From assembly GCA_963813715.1 (NCBI GenBank), contig CAWFAK010000018.1, forward strand, positions 35,526-99,525: DNA of 64,000 nucleotides, written 5' to 3'. The position numbers and the translations under genes are program-made. Source of the DNA: an uncultured Planctomycetaceae bacterium (GTDB lineage Bacteria > Planctomycetota > Planctomycetia > Planctomycetales > Planctomycetaceae). This document shows, one piece after another, positions 8,612 to 64,000 of this stretch (the stretch's first letter is position 1; the number at the start of each line of letters is the position of its first letter). A model generated the notes under the pieces. It was not told the DNA's origin. It saw only the letters and a list, made by a program, of their open reading frames with translations, and made no database searches.

Positions 8612-10185
8612 TTACCGCGCCGTGGCCGGCTCGAGCAACGAGCGACCCGTCATTTCGGCCGGCTGCGGGATGCCCAACAGGTGCAGCATGGTCGGGGCGA
8701 CGTCCGCCAAAATGCCCGGATGCAGCTTCCACTGGTTCTGGTCGGCGCCGACGTAAAAGATTTCGACCGGGAACGTGGTGTGCGCGGTGTGCGGCTGGCC
8801 GTTGGCCTCGCGCATTTTTTCGGCGTTGCCGTGATCGGCCGTGATCAGGGCGACGCCGCCGATCGCGCGGAGCACGTCGACCACCTCGCCCACGCACGCA
8901 TCGGTCGTCTCCACCGCCTTGATGGCGGCCGGAATGCTCCCCGTGTGTCCGACCATGTCCGGATTGGCATAATTGCAGATCACGACGTCATATTGCCGCG
9001 TTTCGAGGCGGCGGATCAGCTCGGCGGTCAACTCGGCCGCGCTCATCTCGGGCTTGAGATCGTAGGTCGCCACTTTGGGCGACGGGATGAGCGCGCGATC
9101 CTCGCCCGAGTTCGGTTCTTCCACGCCGCCGTTAAAGAAGAAGGTGACGTGTGCGTATTTTTCGGTCTCGGCAATTCGCAGTTGCTTGAGACCGATCGCG
9201 GCGACCACCTGGCCCAGGAGGTTCTGCATCGATTCGGGCGGAAAAACCGTCGGCAGGTGAAACGTGTCCTTATATTCGGTCATGCAGACGAACTCGACCT
9301 TGGGCCGCCGCGCCGGGCGAAGCCGGTGAAGTCGTCCTGCATGAAGGCCTGCGTCAACTCGCGGGCCCGGTCGGCGCGAAAGTTGTAGAACAAGATCCCG
9401 TCACCGTCACGAACGAGCGGTTGGTTCGCGTCGCCGCCCGGCGAGCGAATTACCGTGGGCAGGATGAATTCGTCGGTCTTGCCGTTGGTGTACGACTCTT
9501 CGATCGCCTGCACGGCGTCGGGTCGTGCGACGCCCTCGCCCGCGACCATCGCGTTGTAAGCGGCTGCGATGCGGTCCCAGCGGTTATCGCGGTCCATCGC
9601 ATAGTAGCGGCCCATGACGGTGGCGATCGTCCCCACGCCGAGCTGCGTCATTCGCTGTTCGAGCTGTTGCAGATATCGCACACCCGCCGTTGGCGACGTG
9701 TCGCGGCCGTCGATAAAGCAGTGGACGTAAACCTCCGCGATGCCGTTGCGCTTGGCCAGTTCGAGACAGGCGTACAAGTGATCGATATGGCTGTGCACGC
9801 CCCCGTCGGAGCACAACCCCATCACATGCAGCCGTCCGCCGCGCGACTTCAAATTGCCGACGAGCGTTTTGAGCACGGGGGCTTCGAAGAATTGGCCCTC
9901 GCGGATCGACTTAGAGATGCGGGTGAGGCTCTGGTAGACGATGCGGCCCGCCCCGAGGTTCAAATGCCCGACCTCGGAATTCCCCATTTGACCGGCCGGC
10001 AGTCCGACTGCTTCGCCACCGGGGTCGAGCGTGGTGTGCGGGCACGCGGCACGCAGGCCGTCGTTCACCGGCGTACGGGCCATCAGCGTGGCGTCGGCCT
10101 CTTTCTCGATCCCCGCGCGGCCGGCCGGGTTGAGCCCCCAACCGTCCCGAATGATGAGCACCACCGGCCGATGCGCCAATTTCAC
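8612..10185 (-). CDS. gpmI: 2,3-bisphosphoglycerate-independent phosphoglycerate mutase (frameshift near 9300)
   Basis: [58 protein letters not shown]. Confidence 0.96.
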
Positions 10186-52387: not shown

Positions 52388-54157
52388 ATGTCCAATTCCT
52401 CTCTTCGCGCGTGGGTGCATGAGGTGGCGGCCCTCACTCGGCCGCAACACGTCCACTGGTGCGACGGCTCGCAGGCCGAAATCGATCGGCTCTGCGTCGA
52501 AATGGTCGACGACGGCACGCTGATCCCGCTCGATCCCGTCAAGCACCCCGGCTGTTTCTATGCTCGCAGCCATGTCAACGACGTCGCTCGCGTCGAAGAC
52601 CGCACGTTCATCTGCAGCTCCGAAAAATCCGACGCCGGTCCGACCAACAACTGGTCGGACCCGTCCGCCATGCACACCTTGCTCAAGCAGATTCTCGACG
52701 GCTGCATGACCGGGCGCACGATGTACGTGCTGCCGTACCTGATGGGGCCGCCCAACAGCCCCATGGCGCGGGTCGGCATCGAGATCACCGACAGCCCTTA
52801 CGTCGTGGCCAACATGCGGATCATGACGCGAATGGGGCAGATCGCGCTCGACGAGCTCGGTGACCGCGACGACTTCGTGAAAGGCATTCACAGCGTCGCC
52901 CATCTCAACCCGGCCGAGCGCTACATCAGTCATTTCCCCGCCGAGAACCTGGTGATCAGCGTCAATTCCAACTATGGCGGCAACGCGCTCTTGGGCAAGA
53001 AGTGCTTTGCTCTGCGGCTCGCCAGCGTGCTGGCCCGCGACGAAGGTTGGATGGCCGAGCACATGCTGATCATCGGCATCACGGATCCGACCGGCCGCAA
53101 GACGTACGTGGCGGCCGCGTTCCCGTCGGCATGCGGCAAGACGAACCTCGCGATGCTCGTTCCGCCCCCCGAAGACTTGGAAGCCGGCTGGAAAGTCGAG
53201 ACGATCGGCGACGATATCGCCTGGCTCAAATTCGGCGCTGACGGTCGATTGCACGGCATCAATCCGGAGCACGGCTTTTTCGGCGTGGCACCTGGGACGA
53301 GCTTGGCGACGAATCCGAATGCCATGCTTTCGTGTCGGACCAACACGATCTTCACCAACGTCGCCCTGCTGAGCGACCACACCGTGTGGTGGGAGGGAAT
53401 GGACGGACCGCCGCCGACGCAGGCGTTCGACTGGCGGGGCAACTTGTGGACGCCGCAATCACCCACGCCGGCCGCCCATCCGAACAGCCGCTTCACGGCG
53501 CCCGCCTCGCAGTGCCCTTCGATCTCGCCCGATTGGGAAAAGCCGGAAGGCGTACCGATTCACGCCATCCTCTTCGGCGGTCGCCGCACTACGACGATTC
53601 CTCTCGTCTATCAGGCGTTTCACTGGCGGCACGGAACGTTCGTCGGCGCGTCGATGACCAGCGAGAAGACAGCGGCCGCCGAGGGCAAGGTCGGCGAGCT
53701 GCGGCACGATCCGATGGCCATGCTTCCCTTTTGCGGCTATCACATGGCTGATTACTGGCGGCACTGGATCGCGATGGGCGAGCGCGGCGGCAACCGCATG
53801 CCGTCGGTTTTCCACGTCAACTGGTTCCGCAAAGACACGAACGGCCGCTGGCTATGGCCCGGCTTTCGCCAGAACATGCGAGTCCTTAAGTGGATGGTCC
53901 GCCGGGTGCACGGCGAGGTCGACGCGGAGAAGACGGCCATCGGCCTCGTCCCCCGCGCGGACGATCTCGGCCTGAACGAGTTGGGCATCACCGGCAACGC
54001 GGCCGAACAGCTCTTGGGCGTGGACCGTGCCGCCTGGATGGCCGAGACGGAGGAGCGCGACCGCTTCTTCCAGCGGTTCGAAGATCGGCTGCCGCCGGAG
54101 ATCTTCTTCGAGAACGCGGCGCTGCGCTTCCGCCTGGTGATGCGCCGCTCTGCGTAA
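52388..54157 (+). CDS. pckG: Phosphoenolpyruvate carboxykinase (GTP)
   Basis: YGGNALLGKKCFALR, AAFPSACGKTNLAM, IGDDIAW, DPMAMLPFCGY. Confidence 0.97.
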   Translation: MSNSSLRAWVHEVAALTRPQHVHWCDGSQAEIDRLCVEMVDDGTLIPLDPVKHPGCFYARSHVNDVARVEDRTFICSSEKSDAGPTNNWSDPSAMHTLLKQILDGCMTGRTMYVLPYLMGPPNSPMARVGIEITDSPYVVANMRIMTRMGQIALDELGDRDDFVKGIHSVAHLNPAERYISHFPAENLVISVNSNYGGNALLGKKCFALRLASVLARDEGWMAEHMLIIGITDPTGRKTYVAAAFPSACGKTNLAMLVPPPEDLEAGWKVETIGDDIAWLKFGADGRLHGINPEHGFFGVAPGTSLATNPNAMLSCRTNTIFTNVALLSDHTVWWEGMDGPPPTQAFDWRGNLWTPQSPTPAAHPNSRFTAPASQCPSISPDWEKPEGVPIHAILFGGRRTTTIPLVYQAFHWRHGTFVGASMTSEKTAAAEGKVGELRHDPMAMLPFCGYHMADYWRHWIAMGERGGNRMPSVFHVNWFRKDTNGRWLWPGFRQNMRVLKWMVRRVHGEVDAEKTAIGLVPRADDLGLNELGITGNAAEQLLGVDRAAWMAETEERDRFFQRFEDRLPPEIFFENAALRFRLVMRRSA

Positions 54158-54189
54158 GCTACTCCTGGCGAGCGGCGGGTGTCAGCCCG

Positions 54190-54377
54190 CCGGTGGGTCA
54201 AGTCTGTAAGAAGCTATAGACCCGCCGTCGATTTTACGCGGATTTACAGTCCGCGAGGGAAGCTCTGGCCGCTTTCGTCGTCCCTCCGCAGCGTTGGCAC
54301 TCCAAAAACAAAAAAACCAGACTGAGCAGATGCCCTGTCTGGTTCCAAAATTTCGCGGTGTGCCGGGTCGTTACGGA
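54190..54377 (+). repeat. Direct repeat copy 1 (element end / att region)
   Basis: Near-identical to 63809-64000, starting CCGGTGGGTCAAGTCTGTAAGAAGCTATAGACC. Confidence 0.95.
54304..54344 (-). terminator. Intrinsic terminator downstream of the recombinase gene
   Basis: Minus strand CCAGACAGGGCA-TC-TGCTCAGTCTGG followed by TTTTTTTGTTTTT; conserved in repeat copy 2. Confidence 0.75.
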
Positions 54378-55484
54378 GTAACCGGCTGAGCCTTGTGGGT
54401 CACAGCGGAGCGTGGGCAACGCGGCAGTTTGATTCCCGCGTAAAAATCTCTCTTCGTTGAATGTCGGGAACGGGTTAATCCCGTGACCGACTGGAATGCC
54501 TTAGAGAACTCAACGCGAGACAGGGCAGCGTGTCCGTTGGCTTGGCAGAATGCGAAGTAAGCCAGATAGAGAGGCCGAGCAAAAACGCGGCAGGTCGCGT
54601 CTCGTTGCATCTCCACGCTCGCAGAGCGTGTCAACAAACCGCTCAATTGACTGAGGTTTGGTTGGGCGTTGTTCCCTGCCGGAGTTTTTCCCTTTGTCCT
54701 TCATGTACGCGAGCAACAGCGAGCGTATGTTGTGTTCCTTCACTGCTCGCCCGCGATTTAATTCCGTGTGTCCCTCCGCACGAATCGTGCGGCAGATGTC
54801 CCGGTAACTGTGTCCGCTTTCGTGCAGAGCGAGGATTCGAGTTTTGGTGGCGTCGCTCACAACGAACCGATTAACCATGCCTCCTCGTCGCCCATTATGT
54901 TTTGCAGTGAAGCAAGTCATCACGGCCATCACATCGTAGGCGAGTTCCTCGCTTTCGGTGCGTTCCTTGTCCTCATCGGTGAGACCTTCGGTTGGTCGAG
55001 TCTCCACAATTTCCACTCCCATTCTTCAGCAAAGCCTATAAACAAGAGAACGACAATTCCTGCTGATGCGGTCTCCAAACTCACAAAGGACTCGCTTGCA
55101 CTCGTCCTTCCAAAATGGAGTCAATAGTCGCACAAAGCCTTTGCGTTCGTGGTTGAGCCCCGATCCCTGTTTCCTGAATGGTCACAGTGGTTCGCCGGGG
55201 ATAGTGCTCGCCGCGAAGCGTTCCAACCGTTCAACCTGTCGAGTGAGATTTCCCTCTTTGCGTTGTTTGTCTGTGCTCACCCGAGCATAAATCACGGTCT
55301 GGCGTTCGCCGGCTCCCGCGTCGTCAGTCGCGTCATCGACGTTGAGACCAAGAGCACGCACCAAGGAATCGCGTTTAACGAGCCGATGCCCGCCGACGGT
55401 TCGCTCAGTCTCCACGGTGCCGCTGTTGCAGTAGTACCGCAGCAACTCGACGCTCACGCCTGCTAAGCGTGCCGCATCTTTCAT
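54371..55484 (-). CDS. IS607-TnpA-like serine recombinase with C-terminal extension (frameshifted)
   Basis: MerR-like HTH (AARLAGVSVELLRYY...TVGGHR), VIYARVSTDKQ catalytic motif, GSGLNHERKG, DRISR, EELAYDVMAVMTCFTAKHNGRR, then two extra domains. Confidence 0.85.
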
Positions 55485-56379
55485 TCGGAGCAGCGGCCGC
55501 TGAAGGGACAGAAGCAACAGAATTGCAGACCGGGCGTGCGGAGGCAAGAATGGGAGCCAGCATGACCCGTACCTTAGTACGGGGTTGTGTGAGGCTCGCC
55601 GTTGTGGTATCAACACTTCGGTCAGGCGTTTTCTCCCTTCCGGGAGAGCGGGCGATAGCCCAGCTATTTATAGATTAAATCGGTCCGGTTCCTAACAGTC
55701 AATACCCTCCGCACTATTTTTATAAATATCTATACCAGCACTCGCGTTATGTTCCAGGCGTTGGGCTCAACAGCGGCCGGCTTGCTATAACTAGAACAGT
55801 ACCACTATGGCATAGCACGTAAGTCGAACACGCCTAAAGGGCATGAATGGTTCGCAATATTTGGCAGATGTAGGCGTTCGCCCACAATCATCTGTTTTAT
55901 AGTTCATCATACGGCTCCATTCCCTCTCTTCATCTCTTCGCCATGCGGCCTCTATTAGCGTTTAAGGTGCCGCCGTTTTTTTGTCAGGCCACGATAACCG
56001 AAGGTATACTCATCAACACGAGCCGCACGGCGCTTGACCCCCACCTGAAGGCCATATGCCATGCCTATATGCTTTTCCAGTCTGGCTCAACAAAACGAGC
56101 GTGCTCACGCACGCCTAAAATGGGAAAACCTAAGAGTGAGTTGTCTAGGGAGTCCAACGGCTGATTGCGTTGGCTCTGTTCTTGCAGCGGCAACAGCGAG
56201 TAATTTTGCCGGCTGCAACGTTGTGCAGCAGCGCGTGAACCACTCGCCGCCCGCATTTGCAGCACTTGTAAGAACAGCACCGTTTGCCGTTCACTGTCAG
56301 AATGGCGATTATCTTAATCAGTGCCCGCCCATCACGGTCACAGACCGTGTGTCCGGAGGCAAAATGCTTGGTTGGATAC

Positions 56380-56607
56380 TTAATCATGTCGGCACCGTCG
56401 CTTTCGCTTCAAACGCGGGAGCCTGAGTCGCACGTCCAGCTCCTCCAGCATGTCGAGTACGCTGTATTCCTCAAGCACGCACTCACACTCCATCCGCCCC
56501 TTCGTTGCCCTGCTTATTAAGAGAGCCAAGCCACCACGGATTTGCCGAATGTCTCCGCTTCGCAGCAATGCAGCAAGCGGAGGCGTTAAATGTTGTCTTA
56601 TCCTCAC
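56380..56607 (-). CDS. Small hypothetical protein
   Basis: 75 aa ORF abutting the upstream ORF. Confidence 0.4.
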   Translation of the reverse strand: MRIRQHLTPPLAALLRSGDIRQIRGGLALLISRATKGRMECECVLEEYSVLDMLEELDVRLRLPRLKRKRRCRHD

Positions 56608-56978
56608 TAGCGTGCCCCCTTCACAACACCGTTATTGCGTCCCAACATTGACGCGAACGAGGAGCTAACCAAATCTGCAACCGCCGGAAAGGTCTCCAAT
56701 ACGGTCAGGTCGTGTTCAGCGGCGTTTACAAAGTCGATGTCGTCTAACAGACTGAATGAGTCGTTGTCATTGAGTTTGCAGCGCCTGCATCCAAGCACGG
56801 CGCCGTCATTGTAGAGCTTCGCAACAACCGCAAAATACAGCTTGCCGTTCAGCTTGTAAGAGACCTTGGAATCAACCGGCGGGTTCATGCCCTCATAACA
56901 ATCTGTCGCTTCCCGCACGTATTCGTCGGCGGCCTGCTCCGCAGGCAGCGGTACACGTCGCACCGTTCCCATCGGCAC
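56607..56978 (-). CDS. Hypothetical protein (5' end uncertain)
   Basis: 123 aa ORF in the minus-strand gene run. Confidence 0.5.
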   Translation of the reverse strand: MPMGTVRRVPLPAEQAADEYVREATDCYEGMNPPVDSKVSYKLNGKLYFAVVAKLYNDGAVLGCRRCKLNDNDSFSLLDDIDFVNAAEHDLTVLETFPAVADLVSSSFASMLGRNNGVVKGAR

Positions 56979-57108
56979 GAACTTGCGTTTAGCGCGACCT
57001 TTGGTTTCGGCTGGGCGGGTTGAGTTTAGCCAATTGCCTGACTGCTCGCTTGCGTCAGATTGCCCTCTGCTTGCCTTAGCCTGCTGCGCCTCTGGTCCAG
57101 CCGTACCG

Positions 57109-57483
57109 TTAAGCCAACGGCTGGCCTCGAAGCCTGCGTCCGAAATCGGATAAAACTTTTGTTGTGCTTTCCGCCAAGGTTACGAGCTCAGCGGTGCTGC
57201 GGGCCGGCTTTTCGACAGGCTTACGGTCTGGTTTGTCGTATACGGAATACACGTCGAATTCGGTGCCCCACGAAGATTCTTTGCCAGTCATTAAGGTTGT
57301 TGCCCCTTTGTGAATAAGTTGAATGATTTCATCGCCGCTGAGTCTTCTGCTCAGAGCACATTGTTCCTCTGCCGCGAAAGCCTTGTAATATTCATCCGGC
57401 GAAGCCCAATGAACAAGGTCATCGGTGCCAGGTGTTGTGCGGCGAGAGAGTAAGGACATAAGCGCGTCATCTATTGATGGCAT
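57109..57483 (-). CDS. Hypothetical protein
   Basis: 124 aa ATG ORF preceded by GGAGG RBS. Confidence 0.6.
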   Translation of the reverse strand: MPSIDDALMSLLSRRTTPGTDDLVHWASPDEYYKAFAAEEQCALSRRLSGDEIIQLIHKGATTLMTGKESSWGTEFDVYSVYDKPDRKPVEKPARSTAELVTLAESTTKVLSDFGRRLRGQPLA

Positions 57484-57502
57484 TTAGCCTCCGATGTATT
57501 GT

Positions 57503-57742
57503 GGCCGCTGGACGGATAATGTGACATCCAGCGGCCTATTGTGGTGGAAACCCAAGACATTCCACCAAACGTCGTTTGTGTAAAGCCCGGCCAGAAGCCC
57601 TATGAGACGTCAAAACCTTCTGACCGGGAAGGGAGCGTCCGCGAAGTAGTTCGCGGTGCCACAGTACCCCGGCTTTGGGAGATTACATGACAAAAGAACC
57701 ACAGCCGGTTTCTGTAAGTTAGGTGCGGGACAACAGTCCCGC
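57503..57742 (-). other. Cluster of six consecutive hairpins (structured RNA or origin candidate)
   Basis: Inverted repeats at 57503-57536, 57542-57567, 57586-57628, 57639-57656, 57669-57708, 57725-57742. Confidence 0.6.
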
Positions 57743-58217
57743 TATATAGTCATACACCTTTTGCGAGAATCGGCGGGCGATAAAAGGCCATCCTCATTGG
57801 GCTGATTCAGCAAATACATTCGCCCAACCGTGTGAGGACCAAAGCCTCAATGCTCTCGTAAGTGTGTCCGGGCAGACCGCAGTAAAGATTGAGTGCGTCC
57901 GCGAAGACAGCCTGGCGCGTCCGTTCGCCGATTGAGTGCGAGCCGCACGCGTCCTCCTAAATACGATTTATAATCGCGGGCATCATCGGTCAGGTTTATA
58001 TTCTCGTTAACAGCGGGGGCACCCTATCCTGCTCAGAATGAATGAATGGTTAGAAGTGAGATTGTAGGAGAGTGCTCAACTCCGCCGGATTTGAGTGTGT
58101 TTGGTTTTTACATTTTTCTCAGCCGAAGGCTGAGTGCCTTTCAATGCAAGTCTCCGGTCGCCAGACCAATAGGTTTCATTCTCTTTAGTAGGTAACTCAT
58201 TCTTATAGTAGGTCGCC

Positions 58218-58281
58218 CCGGAAATTCCGGGTCTAAAGCTCCGGAAAATCCGGGTCTAATCAGCCGGTGTTTCCGGGTCTA
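58218..58281. repeat. Three iteron-like repeats with 23 bp period
   Basis: CCGGAAATTCCGGGTCTA, CCGGAAAATCCGGGTCTA, CCGGTGTTTCCGGGTCTA at 58218, 58241, 58264. Confidence 0.85.
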
Positions 58282-58740
58282 TTATTTGGGAAATAGACGC
58301 AAGTCCCCTTTACGCTGCCATTCCCTGAGTTGAGCAGCACCCCAGCGGAGCTTGTCTACCATGTACACGTCGTCGGCCAACTCCCAAGCGACCTGTTCGG
58401 CAATGTCAAGGAACGCCAGCGAGTAAAGCTGATACCGTGCCGGTTTCCTGCCTTTGCCTCCGCTCGTGCGAGTCGCCAGACCACATTTGTTCAAGGCTTT
58501 AATAGACTCAGTGATTGTGTCGTGGCTGCATCCGCTCATCGGTCCTAAGCTGTCGCTCACGAACTTGGCTTTGTAGTTCTCTTTAGATGTGCAAGCGAAC
58601 GCCAGCGCCGCATAAACCTTTGCGGCCGATGCGTTGCAGCGATTGTTTGCGACCATGCCCGCAACGTGCTGTGCGATGGTCTGTTCAAGTAGCGGCGTGC
58701 GTTTAACGAACGTCATTCCGTGCGTCGTGCGTTTCGTCAC
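58282..58740 (-). CDS. Winged-helix protein, putative replication initiator
   Basis: AAKVYAAL...SLGPMSGCSHDTITESIKALNKCGLATR...GRKPARYQL resembles phage/plasmid initiator wHTH; adjacent iterons. Confidence 0.65.
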   Translation of the reverse strand: MTKRTTHGMTFVKRTPLLEQTIAQHVAGMVANNRCNASAAKVYAALAFACTSKENYKAKFVSDSLGPMSGCSHDTITESIKALNKCGLATRTSGGKGRKPARYQLYSLAFLDIAEQVAWELADDVYMVDKLRWGAAQLREWQRKGDLRLFPK

Positions 58741-58973
58741 TAAAAAGAGCGACGCGAACAGTCGTGCCGCCCGCTTGTTGAACTTCGCCGCATAGGTCTC
58801 CGGCGAGATGCCCCATTGGTCCCAGTAATGCGTTTGTCCGCGAGTGCGTCCCGCGTCGTCTCAACGCTGTCTTTGGTTAAGCCTTCGCCGTGAGCGTCAA
58901 AGTTGAGTTCGTCCGCGAACATCTCGTCAAGGAACTCGTCTACGTCTCTGGTAATGCCTGAAATAACTGCCAT
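58740..58973 (-). CDS. Small hypothetical protein
   Basis: 77 aa ORF abutting the wHTH gene. Confidence 0.45.
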   Translation of the reverse strand: MAVISGITRDVDEFLDEMFADELNFDAHGEGLTKDSVETTRDALADKRITGTNGASRRRPMRRSSTSGRHDCSRRSF

Positions 58974-59298
58974 ATGTCACCGTTTCTAATTTCTCGTTTC
59001 ATAGCCCTTGTCGTGTCCTCCTAAAATGTTCCCCAGTACAAACGACAACACCTCGTGAACCGATGCTGCGGCTCAAAAGGTGTGGTCGCGAAACTAGTTG
59101 TTATGGTGAAATAACAGCCTGTATTGATTTACAACCCTTTCGTCTCAGCATCGACGAATGTGTGCGTGTATTATCATCCACCCTATTATACGCGCGTTTC
59201 CGGGTTTTTTCTCGCCCGGCGGCACATTTTCCAAGAAATAGTTAAGCGGGCAACTTTAGCTAATCCGTGCTAAGCAGGCAGGTTTGGCTGGTACGCGT

Positions 59299-59907
59299 TT
59301 ATCGCCAGCACTCGTCTGCTCGTCCAATCCCAAGCCCCTCTGGACCGCTTGTCGTCCAACCGCATGGAAGCAAATCAAGCCGGCTGAAGACTGAGCCAAT
59401 CGTGTAAACGTCCATAAAGCCGTGATGCACGATGAAGGGCAGATAGCCGTTGAACAGCATGACGCAATTCTGTCGGGCCTCAGTGAGCATGAAATCTGCG
59501 GCCCTTTCCTTCAGTTGCTCGCTCCGGCGGAGCGAGTAGAGCGAAAAGTCGCCCATGTATCGCACAACGTCGGTGCCCGGTTCAATTGCGGCGACGAAAG
59601 TGTGCCGGTCACTCGAAAAGATGAAGCAGTCCAGCTCGGGGAAGAGATTCCGCATGATGTAAAGCATTGGGCAAGCGAGCTGCTTGCACATTAGGTCGCA
59701 CGACGTCTGCCAATAATCCAGCTTCCGAATGTCGCCGAACGGAAGGCCACGCTGCGGGTCAACGAGCTGGCACGACCAGTTGAGCAGCCATTCCAGGCGC
59801 GGGAACGGGATGACGTCGCGTTCGATGAGTGCTTTAACGTCCGCAAAGCGAACAGACCAATCAACCAGCTCGCACTTATCGAAGACAAGGTTTTGTCGTT
59901 TTCTCAT
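59299..59907 (-). CDS. Hypothetical protein
   Basis: 202 aa ATG ORF overlapping the upstream stop (ATGA). Confidence 0.6.
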   Translation of the reverse strand: MRKRQNLVFDKCELVDWSVRFADVKALIERDVIPFPRLEWLLNWSCQLVDPQRGLPFGDIRKLDYWQTSCDLMCKQLACPMLYIMRNLFPELDCFIFSSDRHTFVAAIEPGTDVVRYMGDFSLYSLRRSEQLKERAADFMLTEARQNCVMLFNGYLPFIVHHGFMDVYTIGSVFSRLDLLPCGWTTSGPEGLGIGRADECWR

Positions 59908-60441
59908 CGGGGAGCGTACTCGCGACCCAACAGGAATTGCCCCAGATAGCGGAGCTGCAAATAGGCGACGTCCAAATAAGACTTGCCAGCGGTCTCCGCG
60001 TCGGCCAGCAACCAGTCAACCGGATAAAGCTCCTCCCAAAGCGTGTGCCACTTCTCTATGTCCGTGGCGCTCACTTGTCGGAACCACGCTGAACAACTGG
60101 CCGCGTCGGTTGGATGAAGCCCATGTGATTGACGAGCGAATCCGCGATTTCGCACTTCATGTAGCCGTGCTGTTTAACAAAGCGCCGATTTGCTCGAAAG
60201 AGGGCTGCGGTGGCTCGTTAAGCGATACTGCGACGACCCGATAGGTGTCCGCGCCACAATCTCAACGAGCTTTTCACGGACAAGCTCTTTTATCGCGGCC
60301 GTAATCTCAGTCAGCTTTAAAGGCGTGTGCTGCACAATGGTGGAGTGGTCGGCCACAAGCTCGCACCTGTCATCGCATGCCAATAATGAGCCAAGCCAGC
60401 AAGCTGGCTGCGTTCTTGGATAGTCTGTGTATAGTTAGCAT
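59904..60441 (-). CDS. Hypothetical winged-helix-like protein (probably one frameshifted gene)
   Basis: Fragments 60174..60383 (TPLKLTEITAAIKELVREKLVE...SSQYRL) and 59904..60155; ATG at 60441 with RBS. Confidence 0.4.
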
Positions 60442-60470
60442 AGTGTCTCTCCGCTCGAATAGATGTCGCC

Positions 60471-60525
60471 ATAGTATTATACACCAAATCTGACGAAATT
60501 CGTTAAATCTGGTGTATAAGACTAT
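60471..60525. promoter_or_regulatory. 55 bp imperfect palindrome between divergent genes
   Basis: ATAGTATTATACACCAAATCTGACGAA-A-TTCGTTAAATCTGGTGTATAAGACTAT; TATAAT on minus and TATAAG on plus in the arms. Confidence 0.7.
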
Positions 60526-60564
60526 GTACCCTTCACGTGCGTTCTATTCGGAGAAACAAGCAAT

Positions 60565-60783
60565 ATGCACACTTTAAAGATGGTCAAGTTCAGGGGCAGT
60601 ATGTGGACTGTCGCCGATTTAACTAAGTCGGTGTTCAACGTCCACGGTCTCGCTTCTCACACTGTGTTCGCCAGGTTGTTCAGAATGAAATGGACACCTT
60701 TGCAGGCAATCGCCTTGCCGCTTCGCGTCGGGCCACGACCAGAGATACAGCCCCTTGGAGCTGGCGTTGATTTGCAGCAATAA
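60565..60783 (+). CDS. Small putative DNA-binding protein
   Basis: VKFRGSMWTVADL...TVFARLFRMKWTPLQAIALP resembles the small HTH module appended to phage HNH endonucleases; GGAG RBS. Confidence 0.55.
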   Translation: MHTLKMVKFRGSMWTVADLTKSVFNVHGLASHTVFARLFRMKWTPLQAIALPLRVGPRPEIQPLGAGVDLQQ

Positions 60784-61258
60784 GCATCTGACCAGTCAGG
60801 AACTCAGCGCGTTAACCAACATGACGCCGGATGAGCGGAAAGCGACTTTATCTGCCGCCGGCGTGGGCCAATGACGATGCCGACATACGAAATAAATAAG
60901 AGGAGAAGCCACAAAATGATTCGGATTTCAAATGGCCTGCGGCACATAAACACGGACGTGCGTTTCAGACGTCCGAATAAAAGCGATTCAACACAGGTCA
61001 TCCTGTGCGTGCTGAGAGGGTCATCTGCCGACCTGCTCCAAGGCCACACGGAAGCCTAAGGTGAAGAGGCGGGTGCCTGGTCGAACTAGCGGAGCTGAGG
61101 AAGGTGAGTTCGGGGGACCGCAGATGCGCCTGGGGAGCCCGAGAACGAAACAAGAGACCGTTGGAGGATGACGAACAGACCAGCAAGGCTTGAAAGGTGC
61201 CTCGGAATCCTGTCAAATGGCGGTACGGCTCGCCGGGCTTTCGGCAAGGGGAGAATAA

Positions 61259-62164
61259 GTGAGAGTTGCGCTCGCCTTTCTATTGCTTTCACATCTCGCC
61301 CTCGCGGCCGATTCGAGGCAGGTTGCTCCCGAAAGCGATTCGCGACTTGCAAAACTCTCGGGCGAGCAGTCGCAGCAAATCGCCGTCAATGGCGTGACGC
61401 TCACGTATTACGCGAACAAGGGAGGCGGCTATACGTTTTTGAATGCTGACCAAATCCTGTTTTACTCACTGCCGTACTCTCCGACGACTTATAAATTTGA
61501 ACACGTAGTCGCATCCCCATTCGGCCTGCGCTCTATCACGTTGGAAAACGGACGTTCCAATTATTGGGTCGGATAGAATGCCGTTGGGCGAGCAAACGGT
61601 GTATCTTACGCGAATGAACGAGGTTGGCGATATTACGCATACCATATTGCGAGAGGATATCCAAATTGCCGTCTTATCTGCCAACACGTTCGTTACGTGC
61701 AACAACGGGCGAGAGCCCAAATTCGACGCCTTGTTAAAGGCAGTCCGGCCGATATTGGAAAAGCCGACGAATGCCAAGCCGCTCGTGCCGGCAGAGCAGC
61801 ATTTGTCCGAGCTATTTAAAAACGCCCCGGAACCGATTCAAGGCTTGCCGCAAGGTAATAATCTGGGCGGGATGGGCATGGGCGGCCGCGGCGGGGTCCT
61901 TCCGCGGCCGGTAGGCGAGCACGCAAGGCAGGCGGTGCCCCCAAACAGGCCCCGGCGCCGAAACCAGCCGCGAGGCAAGACCCTGAACGCAAATTCGCCG
62001 GCGTACTGTCGAACGCGAAGAATCTTATCAACGCCAAACTCTATGCAGCCGCGGGCAAGAGTCTTAAGCGAATCGTCGACGAAATGCCCGGAACGAAAGT
62101 CGCGGAAGAGGCCAAGACACTCCTGGATTCGCTTCCGCCGCAAAAGAGCGCCGCGTTTGAATGA
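61259..62164 (+). CDS. Secreted hypothetical protein with TPR-like C-terminus (frameshifted)
   Basis: Signal MRVALAFLLLSHLALA; last frame LSNAKNLINAKLYAAAGKSLKRIVDEMPGTKVAEEAKTLL. Confidence 0.5.
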
Positions 62165-62455
62165 CCCTTCGCGGCGAGGCACCAAAACCCGAGCTCCGGG
62201 TGCAAAGTGTCGACTCTGGTGGGCTGCGAGTGTCGGGCTTTCCGTTAGTGCGGCAACGCCGCAGTCCCTTGCGATACATCGAGGCAAAGGACAAGACATG
62301 CTCTTCGATGACATAGTTGCTAAGGTTCGGGCCGGCGCTCTGACTGAAATTCCTGGGAAGTACTTGCGGAAAAAACGGGGTATTGCGGTTGAGCCGAAGG
62401 AAATACGAGATGAACGTCGAACCGCGAGAACCCGCCCAGAATTGAGAGCGGAGGA

Positions 62456-62656
62456 TTAAGCCCCTCCGCGTTTTCTTTTTATAGGGGTCTGATTCGCGAC
62501 TCCTATAACATCCTTGCTCGCGCCTGGTACTCCGGTTCCGGTCGTGGGGCCTTGCTTTCCCTTCGCCGTCGCCTTGCTCTTGGTTTGTTTTGCCAATTGT
62601 TTCTTCACGGTCTTCACAATCTTCTTATCAATTGCCTTCCTGATTTCGTCTGCCAT
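62456..62656 (-). CDS. Small Lys-rich protein
   Basis: MADEIRKAIDKKIVKTVKKQLAK with purine-rich RBS. Confidence 0.5.
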   Translation of the reverse strand: MADEIRKAIDKKIVKTVKKQLAKQTKSKATAKGKQGPTTGTGVPGASKDVIGVANQTPIKRKRGGA

Positions 62657-62775
62657 CCTTTTCTCCCGAGGTTTGGTCACGGAACGCGCTCATTAACGCT
62701 CCTGCGCCGATGTAACGCAACGTGGGCGGCAAGTCCGAGCGGGAAGAATGAGACGCGGAACAGAGGAACGAAATG

Positions 62776-63474
62776 TTAAATGCTTTTAGTGCTCGATGCC
62801 TGGGCATTTCGGCCGGACACCATACGTCGCAGTCCGAAGCAGGCAATCCCGCCTGTCAGCAGCATCACAATACTTGACGGTTCCGGCGTGACGCTAAACG
62901 GTCCATCGTACTCAACAAAGTAACCGTAAGCGTTGTTGTTCTGCGTCACCTGAAAACCGGAGTCCTGGTCATTGTTCCATGTGAAGGTCGGCCCGTTTCC
63001 GAAATCACGAGTCCAGTAGTGGACGTACTGCCAAAGCGGGGTTCCTTGAAAGTTCGGCTCTCCCGGAGCCCAATTCGTGTAAGAAACTGGGGCTCCGTTC
63101 ACCCACTGAAAATCGGAAGTCTGAGTGGGGGCCGACAGTCCAATCCAGGCGTATTTGGAATTCGTGGGGCCGACGCCGTTGGCGGCTGGGGCGTTCCCAT
63201 TGTCGAAAAGCTGGCTCGCAAAATTGGCCTGGAGAAAATTGTTGATGTCCGCCGACGTCACTACAGCCAAGTGCCCCTGGACGCCCATGTAAGTCGAAGC
63301 GTTGGCCGCGGCGTTCGCTGCCGTCCACGAAAAACTGTTCGCAGACGAGGTCGGCATAACTAAGTCGTAGTAGTCACCGTTTCCACTGTCCAGAATCGGT
63401 GTTGCGTCTGCACGCTTCGCGGAAACGAAACACAATGACAGTGCCATGCCGCAAAAAATCGCCGACTGTCTCAT
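62776..63474 (-). CDS. PEP-CTERM surface protein with C-type lectin-like domain
   Basis: Signal peptide; FSWTAANAAA...GHLAVVTS...AWIGLS...FQWVNG...YTNWAPGEPN...WND...GYFVEY; C-terminal TPEPSS-TM-RR. Confidence 0.9.
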   Translation of the reverse strand: MRQSAIFCGMALSLCFVSAKRADATPILDSGNGDYYDLVMPTSSANSFSWTAANAAANASTYMGVQGHLAVVTSADINNFLQANFASQLFDNGNAPAANGVGPTNSKYAWIGLSAPTQTSDFQWVNGAPVSYTNWAPGEPNFQGTPLWQYVHYWTRDFGNGPTFTWNNDQDSGFQVTQNNNAYGYFVEYDGPFSVTPEPSSIVMLLTGGIACFGLRRMVSGRNAQASSTKSI

Positions 63475-63808
63475 TGCGCGGCTCTCCTCTTCGCATTGCC
63501 CTCTGGCCTGGAAGCGCCATTTGAGCTCCAGTACCAACGAAATGCAACACTTTTTGTCGGCTGGGCGACGAGATTGGACGAGAAAACGATAGTTATGGAT
63601 AGTTCAGAATAGTGACTAAATTCACCAAATACCTATTTTTATAGGCCGACGGGCGGTTTTCCGCCAGCAGTGTCCGCGAAAAAATGCCGACTACCGAAAG
63701 AAATCCTCAGTCTCACACTGGCCGCTCGCTGTCGGGGGCCAACAGCATTGATTTCAGCAGGAAAACCCGTCAGCCGGAACGGCCGAAGGATTCTAGGATT
63801 GTACGCAC

Positions 63809-64000
63809 CCGGTGGGTCAAGTCTGTAAGAAGCTATAGACCGTCCGTCGATTTTCGATCGGATTTCATCAGTCCGCGAGGGAAGCTCTGGCCGCTTTCGT
63901 CGTCCCTCCGCAGCGTTGGCACTCCAAAAAACAAAAAAACCAGACTGAGCAGGTGCCCTGTCTGGTTCCAAAATTTCGCGGTGTGCCGGCTCGTTACGGA
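63809..64000 (+). repeat. Direct repeat copy 2 (runs off window end; probable start of a second related element)
   Basis: Near-identical to 54190-54377, including the terminator and the recombinase stop codon. Confidence 0.93.

Follow-up and report, generated by a model that had tools for sequence, protein, structure and literature searches.

Can a transposase of the IS607 type come to serve a fixed target, and which part of the protein would then read it? Among serine recombinases the IS607 transposases are treated as an exception with almost no choice of target, and how they engage it is left open (accessible parts of PMC4058570 and PMC6188088). Published IS607 insertions have only (G)GG in common (accessible part of PMC6188088), and the clade was termed "site-promiscuous" in an island database of 2025 (PMC12424338). 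The locus that raises the question lies in a 64,000-nucleotide stretch of DNA from an uncultured Planctomycetaceae bacterium (hereafter the window), where an earlier note had read an IS607-like TnpA extended by a recombinase-like domain and a winged helix. It had guessed that the added modules could give site specificity and make the protein an intermediate between IS607 transposases and large serine integrases. In our reading the locus is probably a compact site-specific integrative element that derives from IS607 or shares an ancestor with it (Table 1).

Table 1. Features of the element, its target and its cargo (window positions unless a contig is named)
Feature	Position	Strand	Remarks
Host REP (target)	54167..54193	+	crossover core: the inner CCGG, 54190-54193
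Element copy A, core to core	54190..55688	-	carries one gene; length 1,495 bp and one core
Right end	54190..54370	-	hairpin and T run after the stop, subterminal repeat, TTGACC just inside the core
Recombinase gene	54371..55563	-	about 390 codons when intact; indels near 55495, 55210-55030 and 54603
RFX / P4-D5 primase-type winged helix	54425..54650	-	includes the frameshift near 54603
Three-helix DNA-binding-type module and small hairpin	54696..54869	-	weakly like the recombinase domain (front half) found in large serine recombinases
IS607-type serine catalytic domain and helix E	54885..55304	-	NF033518; structure searches
MerR-type winged HTH, N-terminal	55350..55484	-	PF00376, E 2.7e-6
Left end	55564..55688	-	core, -10-like hexamer, subterminal repeat, leader hairpin before the ribosome-binding site
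Cargo, 8.1 kb	55689..63808		GC 0.54 vs 0.63 in the host; short ORFs, most of them unassigned
C-type lectin/PEP-CTERM gene in cargo	62776-63537	-	
Copy B, right end	63809..64000	-	remainder at the end of contig C16 (522743-524068, ~1.3 kb)
Partner REP and spacer	contig C16, 522601-522747		

Translation of the window recovers all three peptides quoted in the earlier note on the minus strand, where it had placed them. FTAKHNGRR is at about 54911-54885, in a frame that runs on into TKTRILALHESGHSYRDICRTIRAEG, and LYLAYFAFCQ...FYAGIKL follows in a different frame, downstream of one extra base near 54603 that accounts for the frameshift suspected near 54600. The window copy is more damaged than that note stated, with several one-base indels, two in-frame stops (55182-55184 and 55026-55028) that result from local compensating indels, a shift near 55495 that severs an N-terminal piece of about 26 codons, and the net shift at about 54603; the start is likely the ATG at 55563, which matches homologues of 391-392 aa. 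These breaks are most likely assembly errors, because other genes of the window show splits of the same kind, for example one near 47.7-48.9 kb that we take to be thioredoxin-reductase-like. A second copy of the gene on contig C16 is broken at different places, and a relative's contig aligned to the window has four compensating one-base differences at 55168-55209. Unbroken single-frame homologues of 365-392 aa (P0001, P0003, P0004, P0006, P0008, P0009) and a homologous open frame of 426 codons in genome G002 were found; intact homologues are 66-88% identical to the window protein over its middle part, and all four domains are under purifying selection (dN/dS 0.07-0.20 in the first pair, 0.05-0.24 in the second). 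Separate ORFs or a chance read-through are thereby ruled out, and the fusion is a real single protein. A search of 1.84 billion representative sequences gave 2,107 matches, of which the best 150 were taken; at least 98 of the database proteins compared have the catalytic domain with both extra domains, a count that is partly circular, because 87 of the proteins compared also supplied the profiles.

The domain order is a MerR-type HTH, an IS607-type serine catalytic domain, a three-helix module and a winged helix of RFX/P4-primase type, and the 365-residue AlphaFold2 model built on the 87-sequence alignment (mean pLDDT 91.7) consists wholly of these four domains, leaving neither a zinc ribbon nor a coiled coil. 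The front half is that of an IS607 TnpA, as had been claimed: Pfam and NCBIfam find the MerR HTH and the resolvase domain in the homologues, five of six intact homologues pass the NF033518 (IS607 TnpA) cut-off, the sixth scoring 109.6 against 110, and structures of ISC1904, ISC1926 and IS1535 rank first in both searches with the catalytic domain. The catalytic Ser, within YARVS, lies near 55275-55277 (minus strand), and S70, R139 and R142 are invariant across the 87 sequences. An ordinary TnpA (about 200 aa) ends after the catalytic domain plus helix E, where this protein continues for about 165 more residues in two folded domains. The last of these is confirmed as an RFX-like winged helix by profile and predicted fold (RFX1, 1dp7: Z 9.7, rmsd 1.9, 72 of 76 residues aligned, profile E 5e-5; origin-binding domain of P4, 1ka8: Z 7.7; a D5-type primase encoded in the same genome: profile E 4e-11), in line with the earlier assignment. 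Fold and profile are thus shared with the RFX1 DNA-binding domain, the phage P4 origin-binding domain and the C-terminal winged helix of D5 primases, the difference being that the winged helix is here joined to a recombinase.

The assignment of the middle module to the recombinase domain of large serine recombinases survives only for the front half of PF07508, and is weakly supported. PF07508 matches 7 of the 87 members at E ≤ 0.05 (best 6e-4), the five inspected covering at most profile positions 4-65 of 102, all under the cut-off; comparison with recombinase-domain cores of large serine recombinases gave E values of 4e-4 to 0.1 with most of the module aligned; and whole-model alignments to 9iu2, 9dxd and 4bqq extend through the module (Z 11.2-11.7, rmsd 9-11). 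Folded alone, however, it falls among generic three-helix HTH domains (best Z 7.0, VIA), the top 50 of that fold search contain no PF07508-type recombinase, Foldseek gives no match at E ≤ 0.001, and scores of 0.76-0.77 in the ESM Atlas, where the whole protein has no match, are leads only; a recombinase domain stays compatible with these fold results. The only match of the module profile in 400 genomes of the class is to a comparable module, which belongs to a large serine recombinase; the profile also matches the HTHs of small resolvases and failed to single out the large recombinases of the host genome (G000) itself. As a separate observation, one large serine recombinase (L083, G468:C1:3517690-3520815) has an extra recombinase-like HTH and a Xis-like HTH after its zinc ribbon.

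The recombinase gene is the sole gene of a unit of 1.3-1.5 kb with a CCGG core at each end. Measured elements are 1,301-1,513 bp long and therefore have no space for tnpB, and PF07282 was not found in the G000 assembly, which is 83% complete. Five related copies, together with empty sites, served as the comparison that fixes the ends of copy A. Members of two clades occur in 6 of 12 genomes of the genus: the close clade, to which the window copy belongs, and a distant clade with a paralogue on contig C17 of G000 (31% identical to the close clade) and relatives in G003, G007 and G009, whose elements are 1,301-1,379 bp long.

The target of the close clade, REP-1, is an intergenic palindrome of 27 bp that often forms inverted doublets, with copy counts in G000 of 49-55 and 55-123, against 69,164 CCGG sites. 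We regard it as a REP because a Y1 (RAYT-like) transposase gene (L088, G000:C7:397900-399200) lies between two doublets of its family, the only one of eight Y1 matches so flanked, and this gene is likely the source of the family. All five distinct close-clade sites (window, L013, L016, L017, which is the same as L024, and L023) lie at the inner CCGG of REP-1, all in the same orientation and flanked by a core at either end; orthologous empty sites were found for three of them. The flanks of L016 are contiguous in G000 at C8:310468/310467; G002 has an intact empty doublet in the intergenic region of the window site, and a contig of run X3 is an empty allele of that site with no difference over 70 bases of flank. 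G002 in turn carries two solo copies of 1,469 bp at doublets that are empty in G000, the G000 orthologue of the L017 site lacks the REP, and two further close-clade sites were found in G010 and on one metagenome contig. The distant clade inserts elsewhere: its four complete sites all lie in a second palindromic repeat family, as does a lone right end (L022), and unoccupied repeat copies in G007 fix the junction there. This family has 38 copies in G000 by pattern (e.g., C5:445777, C17:620623), none within 1.5 kb of the eight Y1 matches there. In the L022 locus (9112-10083, G009:C214) the distant-clade copy is broken by another transposase gene, which we take to be IS1595-like. Judged by comparison of sites, then, insertion is shown to be specific, five of five and four of four sites being at a fixed repeat position, which bears out the guess made from the protein; these data cover two clades of one genus, the approximately 90 other long proteins having neither genomic context nor taxon. 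In sequencing runs no more than 0.19 of the query words were present, and the contigs there, from other samples, hardly extend over the element.

Relative to an empty site, a filled one gains the element and exactly one core, with no target duplication. The part of the core common to all copies is CGG, and CG is likelier than GG to be the crossover dinucleotide, because its distance from the TTGAC of the right end is in the same register in L012 as in the other copies, where GG is 3 bases off. The subterminal repeats of the two ends are mutually inverted and imperfect. When right and left ends are joined, TTGAC(C/T) comes to stand 17-18 bp ahead of a -10-like hexamer in most copies, and the joined ends of 8 of the 11 copies (related and non-independent) reach 9 or more of 12 against the sigma-70 consensus, a score attained at 0.14% of random positions. 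The fit is good in the distant clade; the close clade has TATAAA at an 18-bp spacer without the final T that the promoter scan tool demands. The hairpin and T run of the right end were spotted by eye, and the promoter/terminator scan called no terminator. The window contains no tRNA or tmRNA gene that could provide an attachment site.

The promoter-like joined ends, the inverted subterminal repeats and the scarless insertion together point to a circular excised form and to integration of the serine type, the route proposed for IS607 (accessible part of PMC4058570). The recombinase would bind the subterminal repeats at both ends and cut out a circle of the element, which leaves a restored REP; joining of the ends would put the -35 of the right end before the -10 of the left end and give a burst of expression; and a staggered exchange of 2 bp, probably at the CG of the core, would put the circle into another copy of the repeat. 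The two added C-terminal domains would make contacts to the target that ordinary TnpA does not have, such that random insertion and TnpB may have been replaced by homing to harmless intergenic repeats. We infer that the added domains are the simplest cause of the new specificity, because neither protein clade strays from its own repeat.

An unlikely alternative is that an extruded hairpin is what the enzyme or a host factor (e.g., a RAYT protein) reads, with the extra domains binding the element's own ends or regulating direction. Both target families are palindromic, the core lies at the base of the REP stem, the stem letters differ between targets, and the subterminal repeats would offer the extra domains another task. 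On the other hand, AGAAC/AGCAC on the non-hairpin side of the core is kept at all five close-clade sites, and the two clades choose different repeats within the same genome, with no cross-over in nine sites.

The second alternative is suggested by what surrounds the window copy. A stretch of 193 bases 3′ of the gene recurs at the end of the window, where contig C18 stops, and a gene 89% identical to that of copy A stands at the end of contig C16; the flanks on the two contigs are continuous across the empty site in G002. Copies A and B thus enclose low-GC cargo within one REP doublet, copy B spanning the contig break, and the REP copies outside them face inward. The first ~300 bases of copy A are 89-96% like the G002 copies and differ from B, and the A and B bodies are 88-100% alike, a mosaic that suggests recombination between copies. 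In G003, two copies of the distant clade, 99.8% identical, stand around 16,080 bp of lower-GC cargo. Such blocks, found in two separate clades, could mean that the larger island of gene and cargo is the original unit, with this recombinase as its integrase, and that the 1.5-kb solos are derivatives cut at an internal core. The cargo end next to copy A has GAACCGG, with TTGACT 17 bp from TTTAAT, although the promoter scan called no cargo-side promoter, and the read-through tail of P0010 suggests, indirectly, the same right-end/cargo junction in another assembly. We consider an original island improbable: seven of the nine complete sites are solo without cargo, the G003 cargo end has no good -35, between the two cargos there is no match in DNA and protein matches number only two, both marginal, and a domain search of the window cargo recognised no replication or transfer genes. 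The four element/cargo junctions have core-like sequence only and no repeats. Under the preferred reading, a solo element as the unit, the simplest view is that copy-cargo-copy is a cointegrate of a foreign circle bearing one copy with a resident copy, and its outer ends could mobilise the entire block.

A search of 11 other genomes of the genus gave no long match to the window cargo; the C-type lectin gene of this cargo has a relative in G009 (80% over 135 bases). An ORF of 152 aa (58282-58740, minus strand) gives a weak winged-helix match (Cdc6_C, E 0.05) and adjoins a low-complexity repeat at ~58215-58280, a region that could be a small replication module. The G003 cargo holds a GIY-YIG gene beside a 326-aa ORF that is SIR2-like by eye with no Pfam match (L019, 4218-6407), possibly defence genes.

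Two further alternatives concern how the target is chosen. After an A-run, a leader hairpin (about 55585-55630 in the window, minus strand) stands in the same place in all copies of both clades, with two-sided changes in five of nine predicted pairs, and is probably regulatory. It might instead belong to a leader or trailer RNA that directs the recombinase to its target repeat, in the manner of the IS110/IS1111 elements, REP-targeting members of which use such RNAs (accessible part of PMC11187229). This we consider very improbable: the longest words common to ends and targets measure 5-8 bases and show no clade specificity, the distant-clade leader fits REP-1 no less well than the repeat which that clade targets, and an Rfam scan of window positions 54100-64000 gave no match at E ≤ 1. 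Near-random IS607 insertion followed by selection, which would purge genic insertions and which could be favoured by drawing sites from related genomes, is scarcely credible, being contradicted by the site data in that it leaves unexplained both the same base and orientation of the same repeat at five of five sites and the clade-specific choice of repeat.

As for descent, the IS607-type catalytic domains of long and short forms fall into a single clade (support 100/99) against an outgroup of 22 large and small serine recombinases, and the proposal of an intermediate between IS607 and large serine integrases gains no support, the catalytic domain grouping with IS607 TnpA apart from the large serine recombinases. 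By these alignments and sites the protein is of IS607 descent and appears to act like a small site-specific integrase. The trees rest on 137-141 columns and on short TnpA rows picked by likeness to the long form, the careful one using 72 of 160 rows plus outgroup, subsampled by hand. The long forms are not one clade in any of three trees, and 16 short forms are nested among them in the careful tree (95/94), likewise in the fast one; AU tests reject neither arrangement in which either group is held together (p-AU 0.43 and 0.41). A rather doubtful but possible scenario is that the long site-specific form is ancestral, and that ordinary TnpA lost the two C-terminal domains, turned promiscuous and gained TnpB.

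More widely, 6 other genomes matched in a search of 400 genomes of the phylum (five candidates scored per genome), all with frames of 178-239 aa, i.e., ordinary TnpA. None of 157 matching plasmid records covers 80% of the full-length protein, none of 34 phage matches is a full-length homologue, and none of 29 pattern matches in viral contigs was confirmed.

With the IS607 family (IS607, IS1535, ISC1904, ISC1926) the element shares the MerR-type HTH that precedes the serine catalytic domain, the catalytic clade, the lack of target duplication and a short shared core containing GG. It differs in the two extra C-terminal domains, the missing tnpB (usual in that family, not required), the inverted subterminal repeats, a crossover register that fits CG better than GG, and a fixed repeat target rather than any (G)GG (accessible parts of PMC6188088 and PMC4058570). 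Like the large serine recombinases (Bxb1, phiC31; PF00239, PF07508 and PF13408) it would integrate conservatively and site-specifically, and a three-helix module weakly resembling the front half of PF07508 directly follows helix E. In theirs, by contrast, the catalytic domain is N-terminal, without an HTH ahead of it, and of another clade, a zinc ribbon and coiled coil stand where the RFX winged helix is found here, and the target is no multicopy repeat. Insertion into REPs is shared with IS621, ISPa11 and ISPpu10 (IS110/IS1111) and with IS1397 and ISKpn1 (IS3), which use a different chemistry; in IS110/IS1111 a circle with a promoter formed by the joined ends is also described (accessible part of PMC11187229). 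The families known to target REPs are IS3, IS110, IS4, IS256 and IS5 (PMC1525189; see also the accessible parts of PMC3733652 and PMC11187229), and the accessible main text of PMC1525189 has no occurrence of "IS607" or "serine". Among the papers that literature searches brought up, no title or abstract reports such an architecture or an IS607 element in REPs, and supplements of large surveys of TnpB and serine recombinases (e.g., PMC10691335) may contain such proteins; the element is a variant of IS607-type elements that is apparently undescribed in the literature searched.

In this element a member of the promiscuous catalytic clade would be strictly site-specific, with two related clades selecting different repeats in one genome, a system that allows a direct test of how target specificity is gained or lost. 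Serine chemistry would join the list of REP-homing elements, REPs would be a route of entry for 8-16 kb of foreign DNA, and the proteins point to compact integrases with natural multicopy landing sites. If the long form is indeed ancestral, the roughly 100 long proteins would form a library of compact serine integrases (350-470 aa), each with a swappable C-terminal module that determines its target. Seven proteins of 434-466 aa (P0048, P0050, P0056, P0068, P0072, P0112, P0123) have a second winged-helix match at the C-terminus.
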